Assembly: GCA_027310925.1 (NCBI GenBank)
Contig: DAICZX010000028.1
Location: forward strand, 1-31,713
Direction of reading: 5' to 3'
Source of the DNA: Candidatus Parcubacteria bacterium
GTDB lineage: Bacteria; Patescibacteriota; Minisyncoccia; Phycocordibacterales; Phycocordibacteraceae
Length of the DNA stretch: 31,713 nucleotides
The position numbers were made by a program, and so were the translations under genes. The notes beneath the pieces were generated by a model that worked only from the letters and a program-made list of their open reading frames with translations, did no database searches and was not told where the DNA came from. How positions within the stretch are numbered: position 1 is the first letter of the stretch; each line of letters begins with the position of its first letter. Below are positions 7,121 through 16,122 of the stretch, in pieces.

Positions 7121-8165
7121 ATTCCTCTTTGAAATGCAACTGCCGTAACATACGGTGGTATGAAAAAGCGCAAAGAATTCAGGTATTTAACCGAACATGA
7201 CCGAGATCGCATCCAGGCCCTGTATGTCTGGGGACACAAGCAAAAAGAGATAGCCGAGGTGCTCGGAGTGAGCCCCGGCACCATCTCCCGAGAGTTGCAG
7301 CGGTACGACAAGAAGACCTGGCGATACTCTGCCAAACGAGCGTAGAAAGATGCTCAAGACAAACGAGAGCAGAGCAAACTCCCGGGCATGAAGATCGAAG
7401 CACTCCCTGAACTGAAGAAACATATCATTCAGGAGCTCGAACGATTGCGCTCACCAGATGAAATAGCCGGACGAATGAAGAAAGAAAAGATGACGCCTCG
7501 CATCGGCAAGAACGCCATATACGAATGGCTGTACAGCGAGTGAGGAAAACCATACTGCTGATACTTGTGCACGAGACGAATCAAGAAACGAAGCCCAAGA
7601 AGACTCGGGAAGAAAATACTCATACCTGACCGAATATCGCTCAGATACAGACCGGATGAGCCAGGTATGGTGCATGCCGAGGGCGATCTCTTTGTCACAC
7701 CAACCAAGCTAGGAGTGAAGACCTGCGGTCTTCTGGTGGTCGTGCCTGAAACACATCTGCTCTCAGGTTCGATTGTCCCAGACAAGATGACCGCGACAAT
7801 CGTTCCGGCCATGCGGCACATCACCAGCTCGCTTCCGCTCGACACCTGCACGTTCGACAACGGTATAGAGAACATCCACCACAAAGAATTCGGCGTTGAT
7901 TCGTACTTCTGTGACAAGGGGTCGCCCTGGCAGAAGCCTCATGTTGAATCATCCACGGCCTTGCTAGACTCTGGTTCCTGCCGAAAGGCACGGACCTCTC
8001 GAAAATATCGGACACCACGTTCCAATCCATGCTGCATCTGCTGAATCACAAGTATCGAAAATCGAATGGCTATCTGAGTGCGTATGAGCTGTCGCTCGGA
8101 CGAGGTATCATTAAAAGTGTTCCGAGAGTTTCCTTAACAAAGGCGATTGCATTTCGATAGGGAAT
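7121..8165 (+). mobile_element. IS30-family insertion sequence (decayed)
   Basis: Imperfect terminal inverted repeats at 7121-7140 (ATTCCTCTTTGAAATGCAAC) and 8146-8165 (reverse complement ATTCCCTATCGAAATGCAAT), 15/20 match, enclosing a transposase remnant. Confidence 0.8.
7160..8160 (+). pseudogene. IS30-family DDE transposase pseudogene
   Basis: HTH (KQKEIAEVLGVSPGTISRELQR), HAEGD, TFDNGIEN, SPWQKPHVE and LNHKYRK motifs. In-frame stops at TAG 7343, TGA 7541 and TGA 7559, plus a 1-bp frameshift near 7955. Confidence 0.88.
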
Positions 8166-8351
8166 ATACCATAACGCTGGAATTGAACTATTCCAAATTC
8201 GTCGCGTAATCCCTAATTATTTTCTCCCCTAAATTCATCCCAGAATTAGGATCCTGGATTCGGTTCGATTCCGGCATCCATCACTTCTATCCGTAAAACA
8301 AAAGATCTCCCTGTTTTCGCAGAGAGACCCCGTCATTGTTACCACCTGATG

Positions 8352-8681
8352 CTATACGTCGCGATGATTGGCTTTGGAGAACCGTCTCCGACGCGATGCC
8401 TTGCGCGATGATGCCTTCCAGAGGTCATAGCGTGTTATCACACCTTCGATATCTTCCTTAAAGATTTCGATCTTCAGCTTGAACTCCGCTATTGCAGCAA
8501 TGGCACTCCGCACACTTGCATAGCCCTTCGGACATCTGAACAAATTACGTTTCGTGCCATCGGCGCACAATTTACTGCTATGCAGATACTCTTGATTCTG
8601 CTCGCCGACAACCTGCACGAGATACTGATTCGTGACAGGATCATCGTTCACCGCCCACACATACCATATCGTTGTTTGCAT
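8352..8681 (-). CDS. Hypothetical protein (109 aa)
   Basis: ATG at 8681 is preceded by a strong SD (TAAGGAGGT). Basic C-terminus; no family recognised. Confidence 0.7.
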   Translation of the reverse strand: MQTTIWYVWAVNDDPVTNQYLVQVVGEQNQEYLHSSKLCADGTKRNLFRCPKGYASVRSAIAAIAEFKLKIEIFKEDIEGVITRYDLWKASSRKASRRRRFSKANHRDV

Positions 8682-8759
8682 ACATAACCTCCTTATAGAT
8701 GACGGAAAGGATACGATCGATACTGTACCTGTATAGCTGATAAAAAACAACGCCGTGTA

Positions 8760-9151
8760 TTAGTCGGCGTTGTGAAGGAACAACGGTGAAGATTCGGGAA
8801 GAATGAAACTGCTGCTACCACCCTTCCGATGCCGATCGGCATCGAGATCCCAAACCCCCTGCGGAAATACGTGGTCGTTGATATCGAACCTTCGCAATGC
8901 CCATATGACGGACAAAAGACTTGGGGCACGACACTACAATAGCACCCGCTGCACAATCGATTCCCGAGGAACCAGATCGCGTGCGATAGCTCGAGCGCCG
9001 ACCATCCTTCTTCAAGAACAATCTGACACAGGAACGGTCGCAACGCTTTCTCGACATCTTCGTTCAGGGCCTTTCCACAACCACTAATGATGCCCGTAGA
9101 AATTGCGAAACACTGCACGTGCGCGTCGACGGGGAAAGCATCTTCCGGTAT
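8760..9151 (-). pseudogene. C-terminal fragment of an endonuclease III / HhH-GPD-like DNA glycosylase
   Basis: AFPVDAHVQ resembles the PVDTH motif, followed by ELSHAIWFLG and a Cys cluster (LCSGC..C-x5-C). A probable frameshift near 8853 gives ...RRGFWDLDADRHRKGG...* ending at 8760. The 5' part is missing. Confidence 0.55.
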
Positions 9152-9590
9152 ACGTATTAACTCGTCGATACCGACGGTCGAGACGAAGTAGCCACGCTCC
9201 CAGAGGCTTTGGCGTTCGTAGAGGCCATGGGTGCGTTTGATTTTCTTCTTCATCTAGGCAGAGCTTTTGCCCTTCAGTATCTGCATGATGTATGAGACTG
9301 ATTATCTCGGCATGGCGAGTAGACAGAGAGCAATGTGGTCTTCCTGAATGCTGAGTTCGATAATCTCCCAGTGTTTCCATTTGGCGATTGTTTCGAAGAT
9401 TCTCCGCAGTTCACCGCTCACCTTGTCTGAGCCGAGGGCTTTGCCTCGGTATTTGGGTGTCCACACGAGATGGTATTTGAGGTCGTAGAAACAATCGGAT
9501 AATGTACGTATCGTACGTTTGTGCTGGCGCATGAGCGTATAAGTGAGTTGCCTTCTAACGTACACTCCGGCTTCGCCGGAGGTTTTTCCT
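9150..9590 (-). mobile_element. IS200/IS605-family element remnant (left end plus truncated tnpA)
   Basis: Subterminal hairpin CTCCGGC-GAA-GCCGGAG at 9565-9581, immediately upstream of a Y1 transposase remnant. No right end seen. Confidence 0.7.
9152..9532 (-). pseudogene. tnpA: IS200-type Y1 transposase pseudogene
   Basis: YDLKYHLVWTPKYRGK, EDHIAL (degenerate HUH), SYIMQILKGKSS and LWERGYFVSTVG motifs. In-frame stops at TAA 9302-9304 and TAG 9254-9256; truncated before the catalytic Tyr helix. Confidence 0.88.
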
Positions 9591-9592
9591 AT

Positions 9593-9620
9593 AAAAAACT
9601 CGCGCACCGGAGTGCACGAG
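9593..9620 (-). terminator. Intrinsic terminator of pyrE-pyrF
   Basis: Minus strand CTCGTGCAC-TCCG-GTGCGCGAG followed by T6, about 30 nt after the pyrF stop. Confidence 0.75.
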
Positions 9621-9649
9621 CTAATTGTTAATGAGACTTCCCATGTTGG

Positions 9650-10390
9650 CTATGCCACAGCCGAAGCGATTTCCTCGATGGTCAACATGGCAGCATCATA
9701 GGGCTTTTCGGCCTTCACGATCGGTCGGCCAACCACTATACGATCCGCTCCTGCTCTAATGGCTTTTGCGGGGGTCATGATGCGTTCCGGATTCTGATCA
9801 TCGCCAGGAACGATCGCCCACGTCGGCCGGATGGCCGGAGTATTGAGCGACAAAACAATGCCAAATTTCGCACGAAGCACTTCTGCCTCTCTGGGAGACG
9901 AGATGAGCCCGTCGAGTTTCGCATCTGCTGCGACTTGGGCGAACCGAATAACAGCTTCCTCGGTTGAGCAAGTGAACATCGCCTTGGTGTCAGCGTCCTT
10001 GAGGCTCGTGAGAACCGTCACGCCGAGCACTTCCGTGTCCGGCAATTCTGTCTTGAGGGCTTGCATGGCGGTGAGACCAGCGACACACATCGTGGTGAGC
10101 ATTTCTGGTTTCGCTTCGCGGATTAGAACACCGTCCGTGGACAACGTCTCCCCGATGTCGATCAGCTTGAGGTCAGCGAAGACCAGCAAACCACGTGACT
10201 GGATTTCACCGATCAGGTCGTAGCCGCAAGCTCGTAGAGCAGAATTCACCTTGAGGTAGACTCCGGTTCCTTTGAGGCTGTCGGCCAATGTCAGGACCTG
10301 GGCTTTCACCCAGTCCCTTCCGTTCTGACCCGTTGGCTTGAAGTCGGCGGCTACGATCAATCGCTCCGCCGGTGTCAGTGCCTTTTGCAT
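9650..10390 (-). CDS. pyrF: Orotidine-5'-phosphate decarboxylase
   Basis: IVAAD, YLKV, FADLKLIDIGET (DxKxxDI), GVTVLTS, TPAIRP, DDQ..IMTP and IVVGRPI motifs. Confidence 0.93.
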   Translation of the reverse strand: MQKALTPAERLIVAADFKPTGQNGRDWVKAQVLTLADSLKGTGVYLKVNSALRACGYDLIGEIQSRGLLVFADLKLIDIGETLSTDGVLIREAKPEMLTTMCVAGLTAMQALKTELPDTEVLGVTVLTSLKDADTKAMFTCSTEEAVIRFAQVAADAKLDGLISSPREAEVLRAKFGIVLSLNTPAIRPTWAIVPGDDQNPERIMTPAKAIRAGADRIVVGRPIVKAEKPYDAAMLTIEEIASAVA

Positions 10391-10418
10391 GTGCTGTTTC
10401 CTTTCGTTTGGGTGAGAA

Positions 10419-11135
10419 TTACTGTTGCATTGTTGCGCAGAGACGCGCCCAATTCTTCTTCACTTCGAGTTCGAGCCTACCGGCGGCGATGTCGACGACA
10501 ACTTCAAGATCGTCCTGTTCGTATTCCGGATACGCCTCACGAATGGAAGCGATCACTGGCAGACCTTTGTAGGTCGTATCGTGAATCGGAGAGCGGTTGA
10601 GCGCCCCGACGAGTAACACAATGTCCGCTCCAGTGACGGCGATTTCGGCGATGGTGTTATCAGTATTCTGGAAATTGTTGTAAACGTCTTCCGCAATAGC
10701 AACACGTTCGCCTTGCTCGAAATCGAACTGCGAGAGGTCCCAGGAGTATTCCTGTTTCTTGCCCGCTTCCGTCGGCTTCGGCTTCTTGTCTGCATACGCG
10801 AACCTCTTGCCGGCGATGAGCGCAAGCATCTGACCGAACGTCCGACCGCCTTGCGGAATTCCGCAGACGGTGTCGAACGAGTCGAGCAGACCTTGGTCAC
10901 TGAGTTTCTGGCAGGCAGCCTCGGCATACGCCTCGACCGCCCTTGGATGAACTTCGATGCGCCGGAAGTTGAAGTAGATGTCTCCGACAAGATTCCGTCC
11001 TTTGCCGTCTTTCCCCGCGTAGGCGACCAGAGGCCCATTGCGTAGAGAGCCGACTTTCGAGCAGACATAGACGGCGTTACAGCGCTTCCCCAGTTCCAGG
11101 AGGTCTTCTCCTGGCAGTGGAATAATTGGCTTCAT
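10419..11135 (-). CDS. pyrE: Orotate phosphoribosyltransferase
   Basis: Type I PRT with YFNFR, VCGIPQGG and the PRPP loop VAIAEDVYNN; adjacent to pyrF; SD AGGAG at 11144-11148. Confidence 0.82.
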   Translation of the reverse strand: MKPIIPLPGEDLLELGKRCNAVYVCSKVGSLRNGPLVAYAGKDGKGRNLVGDIYFNFRRIEVHPRAVEAYAEAACQKLSDQGLLDSFDTVCGIPQGGRTFGQMLALIAGKRFAYADKKPKPTEAGKKQEYSWDLSQFDFEQGERVAIAEDVYNNFQNTDNTIAEIAVTGADIVLLVGALNRSPIHDTTYKGLPVIASIREAYPEYEQDDLEVVVDIAAGRLELEVKKNWARLCATMQQ

Positions 11136-11288
11136 TGGTTATTCTCCTTTGAAAGGACAAGATCACGATTACGCGTTTAAAGCAACGCTTTGGCCCGTGT
11201 CGATTAAATTCGACACCGAGTTGGACGGTATATTAAAATCAACTACTAGTAAAGAGAGGGCTCAAAAATCCTGTTCGATTCCAAATGG

Positions 11289-11583
11289 AAATACGTTGTA
11301 TATATTGAAAACGCAAAAACCACGAAAGTGGTTTTTGCGTGCTTTTCTAGTCGAACAGGGGCGCCGGTACTGTACCGACTTTGACGGGGAACGGTACTGG
11401 CTCCTGGCGTCACAACCGTGTTGCGGGAGGCGGTACGGTACCCGTCACTGCAAGCAATCTAAAGGTTCTTTCGCACTCTCTCTTCCCTCTTTAGCGACGG
11501 GGCCGGTATAGATCAGTTTTGAGATGATTGAAAGGTTTCCAGCAGGTTTTGAACGACGAACAGGAGAAGCGGTACTGTACTAA
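11289..11583. repeat. Cassette junction A (arm type 1, core 11404-11424, arm type 3)
   Basis: 11289-11427 matches 14347-14485 at 124/139 positions. 11428-11583 is a diverged copy of 12687-12845. Confidence 0.9.
11311..11340. terminator. Terminator hairpin in junction A
   Basis: Perfect 13-bp stem ACGCAAAAACCAC / GTGGTTTTTGCGT with a GAAA loop. Confidence 0.8.
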
Positions 11584-11594
11584 AAAATGCTACG

Positions 11595-12551
11595 TCACGA
11601 ATTACCCTCTTCACCTTGAGCCATCTGCGTGTGCCACGCTTCTTCAAACGAGGAACGAACTTCTTTCTGAAGGTTTACTTTCTCATCCTGATTGTCAGAA
11701 CTGAAGTAACGTTCAACAAGGACATCAACTTTTTCTCGCTCAGCGGAATCACGTAATACCCCAAGACATGCGAGGACTCTGAGCGAGCTCTTCCCAAAGG
11801 TCGCTTCAATGGCTTTTAGGGAAAATAGACTCTCGGCAAACTGTCCGCGTTCGAAATCATCCATCACTTCTCTTACAGAAATCCCTTTAGTCGCCGCCAC
11901 TCCTCTAACAATTTTAGAAAAAACATCATTATACTGCGCGTACCCATATTGAAATCCCTCAATATCTTTGTTGGCGATGCCGAGTTCCTGCTCAAGTTCT
12001 TCCTTAGTCGCCTCTAGAATCCTGACCGCCATGTACTCCGTCACGATCTCATTAAATCCCGTGAGAGCCGCACGACCTTCTGGTTCCTTCCATGGGGACG
12101 CAAGCTGATAACCGATCCGTGCAGGAACCGTTCCGTGTTCTTCACTTCCGAAGAACCTATGCTTTGATGCGCGGTGGGTCATTTCGTGAATCAGAGTATC
12201 CAGCAAGTCAGCTCCGCCATGATGTTTGTTCTTATTTACGAAAATCGCATCGTCAAATGCGGAGGCGAAGCCATGATCGACACTATTCCCGAGTCGCTTT
12301 TCATACGCTTCGGCTGACAGCATGTGAATCTTCTCAGAAGGTATCGGTGTGTATGGAATACCGAGATTAGCGAGACGACGCCGCAACAGATCATTTGCCT
12401 TATCAATATACGCATGATCTTCTTCGGTTTTCTCCTCTTCTCCCTCGACAGGCGCGGCAGATTCTTTTGCCCACCTTTCCAAAGACTTTTCCGCTTGAGC
12501 CAACTCCTCCTCGCCATAGGCTCTACCAATGAATTTGGGTCCTTTCTCCAT
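11595..12551 (-). CDS. Putative zinc metallopeptidase (cassette cargo)
   Basis: TLIHEMTHRAS (HExxH) plus a downstream FNEIVTE third-ligand motif. Start MEKGPKF lies 8 nt after a TATACT box. Confidence 0.7.
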   Translation of the reverse strand: MEKGPKFIGRAYGEEELAQAEKSLERWAKESAAPVEGEEEKTEEDHAYIDKANDLLRRRLANLGIPYTPIPSEKIHMLSAEAYEKRLGNSVDHGFASAFDDAIFVNKNKHHGGADLLDTLIHEMTHRASKHRFFGSEEHGTVPARIGYQLASPWKEPEGRAALTGFNEIVTEYMAVRILEATKEELEQELGIANKDIEGFQYGYAQYNDVFSKIVRGVAATKGISVREVMDDFERGQFAESLFSLKAIEATFGKSSLRVLACLGVLRDSAEREKVDVLVERYFSSDNQDEKVNLQKEVRSSFEEAWHTQMAQGEEGNS

Positions 12552-12558
12552 ATGGATG

Positions 12559-12845
12559 AAGTATAGCTTGATTCTCAAAACGCAAAAGCCGCTCTTTCGA
12601 GCGGCTTTTGCGTACGTGATGCCGAGCGGTACTGTACTGGTCCCAACGGGGAACGGTACTGGTTCCTGGCGTCACAACCGTGTTGCCCGTGTCGGTACTG
12701 TACCCGCCACCGCAAGCAATCCAAAGGTTCTGTCGGCTCTCTTCTTCCCTCTTCGTCGACGGGGGCCGGTATGGGTCGGTTTTGGGATGATTGAAGGATT
12801 TTGGGCGAGTCCCGATAAGCAAACAGGCGGGGCGGTACTGTATTA
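12559..12845. repeat. Cassette junction B (arm type 2, core 12666-12686, arm type 3)
   Basis: 12559-12639 is identical to 14167-14247 (81 bp). Contains five CGGTAC-type boxes and the 21-bp core. Confidence 0.92.
12580..12613. terminator. Terminator hairpin in junction B
   Basis: Perfect 15-bp stem ACGCAAAAGCCGCTC / GAGCGGCTTTTGCGT. Confidence 0.85.
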
Positions 12846-12847
12846 AC

Positions 12848-14161
12848 TTATACAACAGACTGTAGTTCATCAATCGCATTTGCAGTCTTTGCGATCCGAT
12901 GCATTTCATTTTCGCGAAAAAACGGAACGGAATGTCCCATCGCTATGGCGAATTTCCTGTGCTCCGGTGTATCGGACACAAGCCCAGCGCCGAGAGAACC
13001 TTTGTGTTCTTCACGTTGAGTTTTCGCTTTCTCGAGAGCAGAAGTTTGAAACATGGCTGGATCGTACATGCCCACGACTTCAGTCGAACGCACTTCAGGA
13101 GGTAGAGGAACTCCGTCGCGCAAATTTCCTATGATTTCTGCGATAGCTTCTTTTTTCAAAGCTTCCTGCTCCTTACTCATGTTCTTAGATATCCCCTGTT
13201 CAGCCATTCGTGTATCCACCTTATCCATAAACGGTTTCTCTCTAAAAGTAGCAGTACGAGCGTAGGGGTTCGTAAGAAGATTGTAGAGACCGTCGAGCGC
13301 AAATCCTGCTGGCAATTGCCATCGCTTCCTCGAAGTCGGGAGATCACTCGGCCCTACAGGAACATCAAGACGAACATTTAAGAATGGTTTGATGTCGCGT
13401 TCGTCTTGAGACTGCGTGGCTATCCCGTCTTTCAAAACCTGTGCTGCGGTTTCGGCTGCAAGGCTTCCACCCATCGAGAGGCCAGAAAACAGCACATCGG
13501 TTTTCGCGCTTACCTTATCCGCAGATAGAACAGAATCGACAAAAACAGCATAGGCCTTGCCGAACTGTTCAAACGCATGATCGCCGTGCATTGCTTCTAC
13601 GAACTCATCTGATACCGATCCATATTCATTCGATGGAGAACCGAGTACGTAGAGCTCGTCTGATTCAGGATCTCTTCTCTCAGAAAGTGCTTCAAGCGCG
13701 CGTGGCAAACGTGCAACGACCTGATGCATCACTTCTTCGAAGAAGCAGAATTGATTGCCATTTTGAGGGTTCAAGAATGTCCCGAAAACAAATTCTTTTT
13801 TTGATTTCTTCTCAGCCCCAGCATCTTCAGCTTCTTCTCGATTTTTCTCCGCAGCAGGAATCTTGTCAGAGGATTGCTGCAATTCTCGTGCAATATCTCC
13901 CACGCGGACGACTGTCCACGGGAAAGATGCGCCAACTTCTTTTGCTTCAAAAACAGCACTGTTTCGAATACCTTGCTCAGTGAGCGTTTCAAATAGGCGC
14001 CTAACGGTCTCTACTGATTCGAGATTAAGGTTATTCTCCTTTGCATATTTTTCAAATGCCGTGATTGCGTATTCTGCATGATGAGTGAGTATCTTTTCTC
14101 GTGCATCGAGAGCAGATTCTTTCTCACTCGATGTAGTAGGTTTTGGGAAATTCTCTTTCAT
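12848..14161 (-). CDS. Putative alpha/beta-hydrolase, lipase-like (cassette cargo)
   Basis: FSGLSMGGSLA (GxSxG nucleophile elbow), with candidate Asp (GMYDP) and His (MGHSVP). ATG lies 6 nt after TATACT. Confidence 0.65.
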   Translation of the reverse strand: MKENFPKPTTSSEKESALDAREKILTHHAEYAITAFEKYAKENNLNLESVETVRRLFETLTEQGIRNSAVFEAKEVGASFPWTVVRVGDIARELQQSSDKIPAAEKNREEAEDAGAEKKSKKEFVFGTFLNPQNGNQFCFFEEVMHQVVARLPRALEALSERRDPESDELYVLGSPSNEYGSVSDEFVEAMHGDHAFEQFGKAYAVFVDSVLSADKVSAKTDVLFSGLSMGGSLAAETAAQVLKDGIATQSQDERDIKPFLNVRLDVPVGPSDLPTSRKRWQLPAGFALDGLYNLLTNPYARTATFREKPFMDKVDTRMAEQGISKNMSKEQEALKKEAIAEIIGNLRDGVPLPPEVRSTEVVGMYDPAMFQTSALEKAKTQREEHKGSLGAGLVSDTPEHRKFAIAMGHSVPFFRENEMHRIAKTANAIDELQSVV

Positions 14162-14166
14162 GCTTC

Positions 14167-14343
14167 AAGTATAGCTTGATTCTCAAAACGCAAAAGCCGC
14201 TCTTTCGAGCGGCTTTTGCGTACGTGATGCCGAGCGGTACTGTACTGACCCTGATGGGGGTCGGCACTGGTTCCCCTCCTTCGCCAAGGCTACGGACGGG
14301 CAATGCTGGCGTCACAACCGTGTTGCGAGAAAAGGAGTCGAAC
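14167..14343. repeat. Cassette junction C (arm type 2 with a 32-bp insert, core 14306-14326, degenerate tRNA 3' fragment)
   Basis: 81-bp identity with junction B; core CTGGCGTCACAACCGTGTTGC; GGAGTCGAAC at 14334-14343 corresponds to the tRNA T-loop. Confidence 0.88.
14188..14221. terminator. Terminator hairpin in junction C
   Basis: Identical to 12580-12613. Confidence 0.85.
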
Positions 14344-14346
14344 TAA

Positions 14347-14485
14347 AAATACGTTGTATATGCTGAAAACGCAAAAACCACTTTCGTAGTTTTTGCTCGC
14401 ATTTCTAGCTGAACAGGGGCGCCGGTACAGTACCGACTTTGACGGGGAACGGTACTGGTTCCTGGCGCCACAACCGTGTTGCGGG
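14347..14485. repeat. Junction D (arm type 1 plus core 14462-14482 overlapping the tRNA-fMet 3' end)
   Basis: Direct repeat of 11289-11427; the core ends inside the tRNA acceptor stem. Confidence 0.9.
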
Positions 14486-14769
14486 GGTCGGAATCGAACC
14501 GACGTCTGGAGGTTATGCTTACCACTACAACTTTCGTTGCTCTTGCACATTTGATTTGTGGTCTGGACTATGCCTTCACCCACGAAGGGTGTCTACCGTC
14601 TAGTCTCTACACCTTCCCTTCTCCTTACTGAGAAAGGCTTGGCTCGGTATTGCCGTGCGCTTATGGGCGCGAGGGTTTCACCGAATTTGGCAGATGATCT
14701 TATGCGCAATTACTCGCGCAAACGCCCGAATTGTTCAAGCCTCCCGAGGTACCTCTCCTCTACCCCGCT
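14479..14769 (-). tRNA. tRNA-fMet (CAT), intron-containing
   Basis: 5' exon 14769-14738 (AGCGGGG TA GAGG AGAGGTA CCTC G GGAGG CT) and 3' exon 14517-14479 (CAT AA CCTCC AGAC GTCGG TTCGATT CCGAC CCCCGCA A) form a full cloverleaf. The 1:72 mismatch and A11:U24 pair indicate the initiator. CCA is not encoded. Confidence 0.92.
14518..14737 (-). ncRNA. Group I self-splicing intron (220 nt, no homing endonuclease)
   Basis: Inserted after U33 and ends in G. P/Q/R/S-like elements AAATTCGGTGAAACC, AATACCGAGCCAAG, GTAGAGACTAGACGG and AGGCATAGTCCA; P7 GACTA/TAGTC. Confidence 0.9.
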
Positions 14770-14921: not shown

Positions 14922-16064
14922 CTACCGAATGGTTGCGTCATATGTCACTGCCGTGGCTGCTTCAAGTTTTTTATGAAACTCGTTTACTTCATTATTGGTG
15001 AGAGTACGTTCAACGCTGCGATACGTAATACGATAGGCATAGCTTACGGCACCCACGCCCAATTTCTTTTCGTTTTGATAGGTATCAATTAGCTTCACTT
15101 CTTCGACCAAATCGCCAGCAATATCGCGTACCAGATCAAAATAATTATTCGGTATGAATTCTTTCCGAACGATAAAAGAGATATCGCGAACAACGGGCGG
15201 ATACTTGCTCACCTCTTTGAAAGCTTGCCCGAGCTTCAACTGTTTCTTGACACGCTCATCACCTGACCATAAAAGCCGGATATCCGGTAGCTCCATTGAG
15301 ATGATGGCGAGTCGCTCAAGACCGAAGCCGAAAGCCCAACCGTTCCATATCGACGAGTCGACGCCAAGGTTATCGAGCACACTCCCTTTCACCACGCCCG
15401 CACCCAACACTTCGACCCATGTGCCGTTACCGTCTTTATCGACTTCCATCTCAAGGGAAGGATCAGTGTACGGGAAGGTGTCCGGGTTGAAGCGATACTT
15501 CACATTCGGACCGAACGCCGCTCTGGCTATATCAGAAAGAACTTTTTTGAGGTCTTCAATGGTGATGATCCCCTTCTCTTTGGGCGCAAGATACCAGCCA
15601 TCAATCTGATGGAATACGTTCATATGCCGTCGATCAATTTCATCCTTTCGGTATACCTTACCGAAGGAGAGCGCCCCGACCGCCTCGCCTGCCACAATTT
15701 TTTTCCGAACGCTCTCTTCTTTAAGCCAGTAGTACCACATCACCGTAGTGTGTGTACGCAACACGTGCGTGTCATTGACAAAATACGAGTCGGATTTTGA
15801 ACGGGCTGGATGGTCCTTAGGGAAGTTGAAAAGATCGAAGACAATGTCCGTACCAATAATTTCAGGTATCTCAATCACATCGTAGTTCTTAAAATCGGGA
15901 ATAGCCTGGATGCGCTGCACGAGCTCATATAGCGGATTATGTGGAGTTCGCGAAAGATCGGGCATCGCCAAATACCGCTTCATTCGCGTTGCCTCTATGT
16001 CCGTTCGTTTCTCCAATTCCTGCTTCAACCGATTTTCTTCGGCCTTCGTTATTTTAATATCCAT
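14922..16064 (-). CDS. pheS: Phenylalanine-tRNA ligase, single-chain type (alpha catalytic domain plus C-terminal FDX-ACB)
   Basis: DHPARSKSDSYF, LRTHTT, GKVYRKDEID..H..VFHQID, FPYTDPSLE and GWAFGFGLERLA motifs, then YPPVVRDISF...YRSVERTLTNNEV (anticodon-binding domain). Start moved to MDIK. Confidence 0.92.
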   Translation of the reverse strand: MDIKITKAEENRLKQELEKRTDIEATRMKRYLAMPDLSRTPHNPLYELVQRIQAIPDFKNYDVIEIPEIIGTDIVFDLFNFPKDHPARSKSDSYFVNDTHVLRTHTTVMWYYWLKEESVRKKIVAGEAVGALSFGKVYRKDEIDRRHMNVFHQIDGWYLAPKEKGIITIEDLKKVLSDIARAAFGPNVKYRFNPDTFPYTDPSLEMEVDKDGNGTWVEVLGAGVVKGSVLDNLGVDSSIWNGWAFGFGLERLAIISMELPDIRLLWSGDERVKKQLKLGQAFKEVSKYPPVVRDISFIVRKEFIPNNYFDLVRDIAGDLVEEVKLIDTYQNEKKLGVGAVSYAYRITYRSVERTLTNNEVNEFHKKLEAATAVTYDATIR

Positions 16065-16122
16065 TACACCATAATGTAACAAAAAAGTAGCTAAAACAAC
16101 AATATTTGCACCAAATTAAAAC

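Follow-up and report, generated by a model that had tools for sequence, protein, structure and literature searches.

In staphylococci, SCCmec and psi-SCC elements are integrated at the 3' end of rlmH (orfX) by a large serine recombinase (LSR), Ccr, which is either a CcrAB pair or CcrC, and their excision has been proven experimentally. The attB and the site on the element have a core in common, so that the target is regenerated and elements stack in tandem between direct repeats; pseudo-SCC elements without ccr are mobilised in trans. CIMEs are flanked by att sites, have no recombination genes and are moved when the recombinase of a neighbour acts on the outer sites. They and their accretion with ICEs and IMEs in streptococci are among the subjects of a published review (PMC5704250). 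In Dehalococcoides, the ssrA islands lie in tandem downstream of a single-copy small-RNA gene, are bounded by direct repeats of its 3' end and encode a CcrB-like LSR beside the att site, while their number and cargo vary among strains (McMurdie et al. 2011; PMC3146451). Fifteen ssrA islands without an integration module were proposed to be cis-mobilisable elements, and SCC composite islands are described in the same paper (PMC3146451).

The window studied here is a stretch of 31,713 nucleotides (contig DAICZX010000028.1) from a tiny-genome member of the Kaiserbacteria (CPR), whose assembly of 616,831 bp in 82 contigs is 82% complete and whose genome is about 0.7 Mb. We consider it probable (roughly 60%) that the region beside its initiator tRNA gene is a hot spot for LSR integration that also holds passenger cassettes without a recombinase, its closest parallels being the SCC elements and the Dehalococcoides ssrA islands. 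Among the traits of such tandem islands, a conserved single-copy gene targeted at its 3' end, units bounded by direct repeats and stacked recombinase-less units with the same ends are present; the LSR at the element end beside the att site is present in relatives, not in the window. The likeness to SCC would extend to the type of recombinase, the target at a conserved gene's 3' end, the regenerated site, the tandem stacks and the recombinase-less members. On the other hand, SCC units are multi-gene elements of 20-60 kb with repeats of about 15-18 bp and without structured arms, whereas the units in the window are small and long-armed. Compared with the ssrA islands, the target is tRNA-fMet plus its trailer instead of tmRNA, only 5 nt of the repeat of about 34 bp belong to the tRNA, the junctions have arms of 115-160 bp in which palindromic GTAC boxes are combined with a hairpin and a -10 box, many of the units are a single ORF (0.75-2 kb) instead of a multi-kb rdhA island, and the host genome, of about 0.7 Mb, is that of a CPR bacterium. 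As with CIMEs, att-flanked units without a recombinase form a tandem series with an autonomous element next to the 3' end of a conserved gene, whereas the CIMEs described so far mostly involve tyrosine integrases and conjugation and are kb-scale remnants, not tightly packaged single ORFs. The suggestion of the original prediction that this may be an undescribed cassette system therefore has to be withdrawn, because the same plan is found in SCC/psiSCC arrays and in Dehalococcoides ssrA islands with integrase-less members (PMC3146451).

Structure of the array beside the initiator tRNA

The array and its surroundings consist of the following features.

8165..11288, reverse strand: possible older, fixed unit with a 238-aa gene, pyrF and three small ORFs
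11289..11403, forward strand: armA copy 1, with box, half-box and hairpin (11311-11340)
11388..11424, forward strand: core 1 with left extension (GGCTC variant)
11425..11594, forward strand: 3' arm copy 1, boxes at 11431 and 11570
11595..12551, reverse strand: ORF1 cargo, 318 aa, HEMTH at 122, CPR-restricted hypothetical protein
12552..12665, forward strand: armB copy 1, with box, half-box, hairpin (12580-12613) and TATACT 8 nt before the ORF1 ATG
12650..12686, forward strand: core 2 with left extension
12687..12847, forward strand: 3' arm copy 2, boxes at 12693 and 12833
12848..14161, reverse strand: ORF2 cargo, 437 aa, alpha/beta-hydrolase/lipase-like, GLSMG at 227
14162..14305, forward strand: armB copy 2, with box, half-box, hairpin of 15 perfect pairs (14188-14221) and TATACT
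14306..14326, forward strand: core 3, without the GGTTC extension
14327..14346, reverse strand: decayed tRNA 3'-end fragment (GTTCGACTCC...CTC), just upstream of core 3
14347..14461, forward strand: armA copy 2, with palindromic box CGGTACAGTACCG, half-box, 13-bp hairpin and -10-like TATACA
14446..14482, forward strand: core 4 with conserved left extension (CGGTACTGGTTC + CTGGCGCCACAACCGTGTTGC), the tRNA-proximal junction
14478..14517, reverse strand: 3' exon of tRNA-Met(CAT), its last 5 nt (GCAAC) being the right end of core 4
14518..14737, reverse strand: group I intron, inserted between U33 and C34 of the anticodon loop (Rfam RF00028, 58.6 bits, E 1.4e-12)
14738..14769, reverse strand: 5' exon of tRNA-Met(CAT), initiator type, found by ARAGORN after removal of 14518-14737

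ARAGORN misses the tRNA in the intact sequence because the group I intron splits the gene; with 14518-14737 removed, it reports a 72-nt tRNA-Met(CAT) with a 1:72 mismatch and its 3' end at 14478. The intron boundaries agree with contigs of other organisms from the same samples, which join 14517 directly to 14738. The 21-bp core CTGGCG(T/C)CACAACCGTGTTGC starts at 11404, 12666, 14306 and 14462, always on the forward strand and with 0 mismatches, giving core-to-core spacings of 1262, 1640 and 156 bp, and none of 100 shuffled sequences contained it. These four copies, their spacings and the framing of one ORF by arms had been described in the original prediction and were reproduced, as was the overlap of the last copy with the tRNA, which comprises the final 5 nt. 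The 616,831-bp assembly has no further copy of the core, and a genome-wide search found no copy of the arms or of the exact CGGTACTGTAC box outside the tRNA locus. The proposed search of the whole genome thus returned the tRNA-fMet locus only, and a dispersed repeat of REP or MITE type is ruled out, since core, arms and exact box are confined to one locus.

In 62 junctions, the invariant block is longer than the core, reaching from about -15 to +21 (TCGGTACTGGTTC + core, about 34-36 bp), whereas the arms diverge to 77-92% identity. The two armA copies in the window (11289-11403 and 14347-14461) are 88% identical and have homologues in relatives, the armB copies are 92.5% identical (copy 2 against 12552-12665), and the 3' arm copies, of about 160 bp, are 77% identical. 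At core 3, 31 unrelated bases (14275-14305) separate the core from the half-box. The ORFs fit tightly between their arms: TATACT lies 6 nt before the ATG of ORF2, and 14 nt separate the stop codon of ORF1 from the outer CGGTACTGTA box, against 4 nt for that of ORF2. A -10 box 6-8 nt before the ATG implies leaderless mRNA. The arms would also be expression insulators, in which the hairpin ends the upstream transcript and the -10 box starts the cargo.

With regard to the cargo, ORF1 has no Pfam match; its Atlas matches are Minisyncoccota clusters, with a weak lead to Peptidase_M78. ORF2 has a weak Lipase_3 match and Abhydrolase families as Atlas neighbours. A homologue of ORF2 occurs elsewhere without arms (82% nucleotide identity), and the homology ends at the edges of the ORF, reaching the -10 box on one side and stopping 15 nt short of the stop codon on the other. 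The 156-bp unit has no gene and consists of the tRNA fragment (14327..14346), armA and core 4. It is old, because it is common to the closest relative (G092; GatA 89% identical), with which synteny ends exactly at 14326, the right edge of core 3. Since this proximal unit is older than the distal cassettes, insertion is not strictly at the tRNA-proximal site. On the distal side, the possible older unit ends in a third type of arm, class C (8165-8290), without an adjoining core; this arm matches positions 1524-1710 of L132 and junctions in L028, L048 and L049. In L132, the block of the 238-aa gene and pyrF is upstream of the ORF1 module, the reverse of the order in the window.

Distribution of the core and its linked serine recombinase

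The core is present in 55 of 222 genomes of the genus and absent from all 24 genomes of other families that were searched, and among 185,579 species genomes it was found only in MAGs of Kaiserbacteria/Paceibacterota type. Each genome has 1-4 direct copies beside tRNA-fMet, 0.75-15 kb apart and on one contig with few exceptions; all of them adjoin the tRNA or lie downstream of it in one orientation, and the mean number of core mismatches rises with distance from it (0.44, 0.91, 1.48). Conservation is seen on the gatCAB side, and no genes on the downstream side are shared between species. Core-less members of the genus have a plain terminator immediately after the tRNA, and therefore the core and arms were acquired and are not an ancestral trailer.

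The 30 core-to-core units measure 0.16-15.4 kb; ten have one gene, seven have two, and 25 are without a recombinase. Genes between cores include hydrolases, RsgA, NUDIX, NYN, ABC-F, purH, MFS, RecQ and R-M systems, and the NYN and ABC-F cassettes reappear at differing ranks among relatives. The ORF1 module (12658-11419) recurs in other genomes at 78-83% nucleotide identity, with homology ending within about 10 bp of the cores: in G107 it occupies rank 3 after an LSR island, in L125 it follows a RecQ gene, and in L132 it is downstream of the pyrF block. Cassette number, order and cargo all vary, as a comparison of relatives had been expected to reveal, and the repeat is not scattered, so that the grounds for rejection named in the original prediction do not apply. 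The prediction that cassette-like units form a tandem array at this one locus, on the 3' end of tRNA-fMet, is supported. The junctions fall into several classes (tRNA fragments, a palindromic tRNA-fragment class and class C), some are without a core (L124, L125), and in L045 and L054 the cargo is opposite in orientation to the -10 box of the arm. More than one element family may use the tRNA-fMet locus.

Four genomes (G173, G155, G232 and G107) have complete units of 12-15 kb that encode an LSR. In these, the core and armB are proximal and the 3' arm and core are distal, so that these units have the same ends as the mini-units; in G107, the LSR stop codon is 24 bp from armB and the core. The protein of L044 has all three Pfam domains, Resolvase, Recombinase and Zn_ribbon_recom. 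All eight members of this LSR clade (mutual identity at least 76%) lie 0.1-5 kb from a core and none is in a core-less genome, whereas all other LSRs of the genus are at most 64% identical. The linkage is repeated on 11 further metagenome contigs. Moreover, in all 15 genome pairs the LSR proteins resemble each other more closely than the GatA proteins do (e.g. 95.6% versus 78.2%), which points to horizontal spread. The original prediction had pointed to tyrosine integrases as enzymes that target tRNA 3' ends, and had suggested a listing of the recombinases that co-occur with the repeat. The associated recombinase is an LSR instead: one LSR clade is physically linked to the core in 8 of 8 genomes, and no tyrosine recombinase was found in any array examined. 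As predicted, no recombinase is encoded by the units in the window, the Pfam Phage_integrase and Resolvase matches of the genome all being on other contigs.

These data suggest that, in one genus of Ca. Kaiserbacteria, islands that encode a dedicated LSR use the region just 3' of the initiator tRNA gene as a hot spot for site-specific integration. A complete island starts with the core and armB, continues with an LSR gene that points to the tRNA and with the cargo, and ends with the 3' arm and core. Since the same site of about 34 bp is at both ends of a unit, integration would regenerate it and units would pile up head to tail. The units of ORF1 (the HExxH protein) and ORF2 (the hydrolase) would be island ends without a recombinase, that is, passenger cassettes, mobile only with a cognate LSR supplied in trans or from an adjacent island (accretion or cis-mobilisation). 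Because the same repeat and arms bound LSR islands of 12-15 kb in relatives, the locus looks like a small integrase-dependent gene-shuffling site. The anatomy, the restriction to one locus, the variation in number, order and cargo, the linkage of LSR and core, the ends common to LSR islands and mini-units and the breakpoints at cores are observations, whereas the action of the LSR on the core, the position of crossover, the circles of mini-units and the roles of the arms in transcription are what we infer.

No member of the linked clade was found in the assembled 82% of this genome. The closest LSR there has 61% identity; its gene adjoins tRNA-Asp and is interrupted by an in-frame TAG. The array may therefore be immobile in this genome at present, though absence of the cognate LSR is not proven because the assembly is 82% complete. 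In the Logan contigs of four runs, which break at repeats, there were no joints at cores, circles, empty sites or cassette skipping; none of the fetched contigs was circular, and the core had no match in IMG/VR. The att sites of LSRs usually measure about 40-50 bp, with attB and attP unlike each other; as a counterpoint to the LSR reading, both partners here would have about 34 bp in common. To our knowledge, no LSR needs arms of 115-160 bp with palindromic boxes.

Alternative explanations

A bolder reading, which we regard as a tentative possibility, is a serine-recombinase counterpart of the integron, in which the LSR reversibly captures, excises and re-stacks purpose-built single-ORF cassettes at tRNA-fMet. 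One LSR could do so, because every junction has the same site of about 34 bp. A dedicated process would then set an ORF with exact boundaries between the arm with -10 box and hairpin and the boxed 3' arm, and such a process is suggested by the ORF2 homology, since it stops at the ORF boundaries. As in integrons, mostly single-gene cassettes form an ordered stack at one platform with variable cargo and order, most units are non-autonomous and would depend on one recombinase, and older or decayed sites are distal. Unlike in integrons, the associated recombinase is of the serine type, and large multi-gene islands use the same site as the cassettes. The array is not an integron itself: there is no IntI-type tyrosine recombinase beside it (window contig and the arrays of five relatives), inspection found no attC imperfect palindromes with R''/L''-L'/R' inverse cores (GTTRRRY) at cassette 3' ends, and instead of a common Pc promoter each cassette has its own TATACT 6-8 nt before the ATG (a putative promoter) and a 15-bp hairpin. 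The term integron-like in the original prediction is hence an analogy only, given no IntI, no attC and cassettes with their own -10 box and hairpin. Its remark that the repeats do not resemble attC agrees with their appearance: by inspection they are a direct invariant block of about 34 bp plus arms, and folding pairs the GTAC boxes only.

Homologous recombination could also rearrange the array, if the junctions of about 300 bp (core plus arms) served as portable homology through which RecA swaps, duplicates and deletes modules after DNA uptake, the LSR moving large islands only. We consider this unlikely. The arms, at 115-160 bp and 77-92% identity, are longer than an LSR site requires, junctions with internal deletions occur in L124 and L196, and this genome has no cognate LSR in its assembly, all of which would suit such exchange. 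Nevertheless, breakpoints in the examined cases are at cores and not inside arms, the 34-bp block stays constant despite the divergence of the arms, LSR islands and mini-units have both ends in common, and arms of 77% identity are poor RecA substrates.

Quite unlikely, in our view, is a fossil array, i.e. deletion remnants of successive LSR islands that are now fixed, with arms and core kept as terminators, promoters and tRNA trailer. The lack of a cognate LSR in the assembly, the deletion derivatives in L196 and L051, the loss of the core from some junctions and the conservation of the 156-bp unit with G092 are consistent with it. On the other hand, the four cores in the window are intact though nothing in the core suggests that it acts as a promoter or terminator, random deletions would not fit ORFs to arms within 4-14 nt, one module appears at different ranks and orders in different genomes, and the same samples hold other cassettes with near-identical arms (seen as loose ends).

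Tyrosine integrases classically target the 3' ends of tRNAs. Control by a tyrosine recombinase, with the GTAC boxes as arm-type sites, is very improbable, whether the enzyme were an integrase of integron or lambda type with its gene elsewhere or the host Xer, which would use the core in the manner of dif modules and IMEX. Such control would explain why boxes flank each core in a fixed layout resembling that of attP arm sites, and each genome has one Xer-like tyrosine recombinase. Core-less genomes have Xer too, so that it does not co-vary with the core, and against one LSR clade linked in 8 of 8 genomes there is no tyrosine recombinase in or near any array (PF00589 searched on the window contig and in the array contigs or regions of five relatives). 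A tRNA-targeting tyrosine-integrase island is further rejected because the tRNA contributes only 5 nt of the repeat. Inspection likewise found no attC-type inverse cores and no 28-bp dif-like dyad (11-bp arms, 6-bp spacer) in the core, which speaks against Xer dif modules, though this comparison is indirect.

Finally, we give hardly any credence to a functional RNA, i.e. a 3'-UTR, tRNA-trailer element or processing signal common to the tRNA and cassette mRNAs, for although the junction would be transcribed because it comes after each stop codon and before the following hairpin, is also found after the tRNA, and takes the form of tRNA-like minihelices in some relatives, RNAalifold on 14 copies pairs only the palindromic boxes with a covariation term of +0.31 (no support), Rfam has no match at the junction, and the LSR linkage, synteny breaks and cargo turnover would be left unexplained.

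Implications for reduced CPR genomes

In the literature searched, we found no description of mobile elements of CPR/Patescibacteria at this level. If the locus is an LSR hot spot with passenger cassettes, tRNA-fMet would be a lineage-wide, site-specific route by which genomes of about 0.7 Mb sample accessory genes. An LSR with a defined site of about 34 bp that is apparently regenerated on integration would also be of interest for DNA-stacking serine-integrase tools. Moreover, if the one-ORF units really move, they would represent a second, mechanistically independent answer to the problem that integrons solve, and the unsolved question of cassette building would become testable in a new system. 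Should the array indeed be a serine-recombinase counterpart of the integron, it would provide streamlined CPR genomes with a compact, insulated platform for gene sampling.

The array at tRNA-fMet

The 21-bp core occurs four times in the window (cores 1-4), always on the plus strand and with no match in shuffled sequence, and the copies are identical save for a single T/C difference in core 4. On the minus strand, the cores, their flanking arms (armA, armB and the 3' arm) and the single genes of the two large units (ORF1 and ORF2) are ordered from the tRNA as follows.

Minus-strand order of the array
tRNA-fMet; core 4 (14462, plus strand); armA; 20-nt decayed tRNA 3' fragment; core 3 (14306, plus strand)
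armB; ORF2 (437 aa, minus strand); 3' arm; core 2 (12666, plus strand)
armB; ORF1 (318 aa, minus strand); 3' arm; core 1 (11404, plus strand); armA
unique leader; 238-aa gene; pyrF

Paired arms in the window are 88%, 92.5% and 77% identical. TATACT precedes the ATG by 6 nt in ORF2 and 8 nt in ORF1, and the stop codons lie 4 nt (ORF2) and 14 nt (ORF1) from the outer palindromic GTAC box. The original prediction of a four-core array of one-ORF units at tRNA-fMet is thus borne out in every detail of cores, arms and ORF fit. Its tie to this locus also stood in the whole-genome search: the 617-kb, 82-contig, 82%-complete assembly of the same genome (G000) holds no further copy of the core, and the arms and exact box CGGTACTGTAC are confined to the array, which rules out a dispersed repeat. 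A consensus promoter and terminator scan flagged neither the -10 box of armB nor its minus-strand hairpin, so that the promoter and terminator roles of armB are assigned by inspection; armB has no -35 box, and the T-run of the hairpin is one T below the scan threshold. Foreign base composition of the two cassettes was discarded, because the GC profile gives no clear anomaly there; the pyrF block is higher (~55%).

The tRNA-Met(CAT), on the minus strand, is overlooked by ARAGORN because a group I intron (Rfam RF00028, 58.6 bits) interrupts the gene. After removal of the 220-nt intron, ARAGORN reports a 72-nt tRNA-Met(CAT) with a 1:72 mismatch (14769-14738 + 14517-14478), and core 4 covers its final five bases. 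The intron (14518-14737, minus strand) lies between U33 and C34 of the initiator tRNA. Homologues are found at eight loci of relatives (L024, L025, L029, L030, L036, L057, L059 and L123), and the anticodon arm is uninterrupted in many other relatives (GGTTATGAGCCTC). Contigs with an intron-less tRNA co-occur in samples holding the window, and 14517 is joined directly to 14738 in contigs of other organisms from the same samples. Between tRNA-fMet and a conserved 192-aa gene lies a gene (14925-16082, minus strand) for a 386-aa PheRS-like protein, in which a class II core (tRNA-synt_2d) is fused to an FDX-ACB anticodon-binding domain in the layout of the mitochondrial single-chain type. In the loci compared, alignment extends over this gene only for G092, the closest relative.

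Variation among relatives

Core-bearing genomes numbered 14 of 36 in the genus and 55 of 222 on a wider search, against none of 24 from other families of the order. Moreover, a scan of one genome per species (185,579 species) found the core only in MAGs of the Ca. Kaiserbacteria-type lineage to which G000 appears to belong. Genomes carry one to four copies, on the same strand and with few exceptions on one contig, 0.75-15 kb apart, and the rightmost copy abuts tRNA-fMet. In core-less members of the genus a plain terminator immediately follows the tRNA, so that core and arms are acquired sequence rather than an ancestral tRNA trailer. By GatA identity to G000, core-bearing genomes are enriched among closer relatives, yet are interleaved with core-less ones. 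Upstream of the tRNA, the 192-aa gene, gatA, gatC and ligA are conserved in most loci; on its downstream side, recurring cassette genes excepted, no gene families are common between species. The comparison among relatives agrees with the expectation that cassette number, order and cargo vary at this locus.

The lengths of 30 core-to-core units in 19 genomes lie between 156 bp and 15.4 kb; ten of these units contain one gene and seven contain two. The cargo of relatives includes RsgA, NYN, NUDIX, APH, purH, MFS, ABC-F and TPR proteins, among others. ORF2 of the window is alpha/beta-hydrolase-like with a GLSMG motif. The protein of ORF1 is confined to the CPR, contains HEMTH and gives a weak lead to Peptidase_M78; PADLOC matched neither ORF to a defence system. 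A homologue of ORF2 found elsewhere (L127 5989-7299; also L128 and L129) is 89% identical in amino acids and 82% in nucleotides to window 14173-12865, and lies in an unrelated context, without arms, 4.7 kb from a different large serine recombinase (LSR). This homology begins at the -10 box and ends 15 nt short of the stop codon.

The ORF1 module with armB and 3' arm (window 12658-11419) recurs elsewhere at 78-83% nucleotide identity. It is the third unit in the relative G107, after an LSR island and a PG-binding gene, stands behind a RecQ gene in GCA_030681015, and fills short contigs bounded at both ends by a core. On contig L132 the block of the 238-aa gene and pyrF is upstream of this module, opposite to the order in the window, and NYN and ABC-F cassettes differ in rank between genomes. 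In G092 (GatA 89%), the alignment from the tRNA side ends with the final base of core 3 (14326). Mean core mismatches rise away from the tRNA (0.44, 0.91, 1.48).

Contig ends in the mine-drainage runs X4 and X1 follow the window as far as the edge of a core or arm, beyond which they diverge. The G092-type junction at 14326 appears as a contig end in one such run, and other ends with different neighbours lie at 11381, 12578/14186 and 12810. These divergent ends mean that the samples hold related populations with other cassette contents. Logan contigs of four window-holding runs break at the repeats and gave no joint at cores, their sole joint being the intron-less tRNA from other organisms. The core had no match in IMG/VR, and the retrieved contigs showed no terminal overlaps indicative of circular forms. 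For these reasons we infer, rather than observe, the excision of units from the array.

Recombinases and junctions

An LSR is present in five of the 30 units, four of which are complete (G173, 13.3 kb; G155, 15.4 kb; G232, 13.8 kb; G107, 12.1 kb; all relatives of the same genus). Each complete unit has core and armB on the tRNA-proximal side and 3' arm and core on the distal side, and the LSR islands share both end types with one-gene units. In G107, 24 bp separate the LSR stop codon from armB; the G173 island encodes a DpnII restriction-modification system, an SNase nuclease, a Dda-like helicase and a fusion of ParB with a methylase. With the G173 LSR as query across the genus, eight proteins were 76-100% identical and all other LSRs at most 64%. 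All eight lie on the core's contig, 0.1-5 kb away, and none in a core-less genome; 11 further metagenome contigs place an LSR 82-88% identical to that of G173 just left of a core. LSR identity exceeded GatA identity in 15 of 15 genome-pair comparisons (e.g. 95.6% vs 78.2%). It is this LSR clade that adjoins the cores, and not a tyrosine integrase, the class first named in connection with tRNA 3' ends: Pfam Phage_integrase had no match within any array examined, and a tyrosine integrase, integron or Xer system was rejected as unlikely for want of a linked tyrosine recombinase.

We read the array as an LSR integration hot spot holding recombinase-less, tightly packaged passenger cassettes, with a probability of roughly 0.6. 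Known LSR biology, however, does not account for the long arms and GTAC boxes, which may bind an accessory factor. Shuffling of the small units by homologous recombination via these long arms is a real rival. In G000 itself, the array could plausibly be a fossil. This 0.6-Mb genome has four LSR paralogues, all on contigs other than that of the window (C11, C13, C27 and C33). The closest (C11) is 61% identical, neighbours tRNA-Asp and contains an in-frame TAG; the window cassettes are therefore without a cognate enzyme in the 82%-complete assembly. A junction acting as an RNA element was dismissed as the main explanation, as Rfam gave nothing in the arms and RNAalifold paired only the palindromic boxes, with no covariation (covariation term +0.31).

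Over 62 stacked junctions of this genome and its relatives, about -15 to +21 is nearly invariant (TCGGTACTGGTTC followed by the core), and the palindromic box at -39 to -29 is moderately conserved. At internal junctions, conservation falls steeply directly right of ...GTTGC. The right-hand neighbour of the core is of four classes, namely the tRNA, the GTAC-boxed 3' arm, tRNA 3' fragments (including a palindromic class) and a class C arm. This third junction arm type (GGAATTGAAC...CGTCGCGTAATCCCT...GGTTCGATTCC) is found at L132 1524-1710, straight after pyrF and abutting a core, and at window 8165-8290, on the downstream side of the pyrF block, where no core adjoins it; the pyrF block thus looks like an older unit that lost its site.

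At some junctions an imperfect palindrome of ~60 nt stands in for the boxed 3' arm, combining a 3' fragment of tRNA-fMet with an inverted copy of that fragment (GGGGTCCAGAATCGAA...AAGTTCGATTCCGACCCC). A second element family may use this palindrome as its site, or it may be a minihelix resembling a tRNA. It occurs at the following loci of relatives.

Palindromic tRNA-fragment junctions
L024 9734-9795
L046 4988 and 7092
L047 5450
L050 1961
L053 16708
L055 148

The 3' half of tRNA-fMet is present twice at L053 16703-18990, L054 3709-5303 and L046 8761-10703. The two copies enclose one to four ORFs (four at L053 and at L046), of which some belong to the recurring families fam11, 14, 36, 58, 59, 63 and 65. 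These loci look like another small element inserted inside the tRNA. At L196 2793-4099, a 5'-truncated LSR (first 36 residues missing) is fused directly to a boxed arm beside a core. This deletion derivative illustrates one route by which islands become smaller.

Relation to known systems

The overall plan of the array is that of tandem islands driven by an LSR and sited at a conserved gene's 3' end, of which SCC with psi-SCC is one example and the Dehalococcoides ssrA islands are the closest match. The latter have a CcrB-like integrase adjoining attL and are delimited by a 20-bp repeat, and 15 islands without integrase were proposed to be cis-mobilisable elements (PMC3146451). The array lacks the defining features of an integron (IntI, attC and a common promoter), so that the suggested integron likeness is no more than an analogy. 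Nor is it an undescribed kind of cassette system, since SCC/psi-SCC and the ssrA islands already exhibit the plan. Our literature search found no relevant account of such a system in Patescibacteria or Kaiserbacteria.

What is new relative to known LSR islands is the tRNA-fMet target, the shared site of ~34 bp, the structured, predicted expression arms, the mostly one- or two-gene units and the CPR host. Relatives hold one to six LSRs per genome, and LSR islands therefore appear to be the chief integrative elements in the genus. The array itself is a real and lineage-wide feature.
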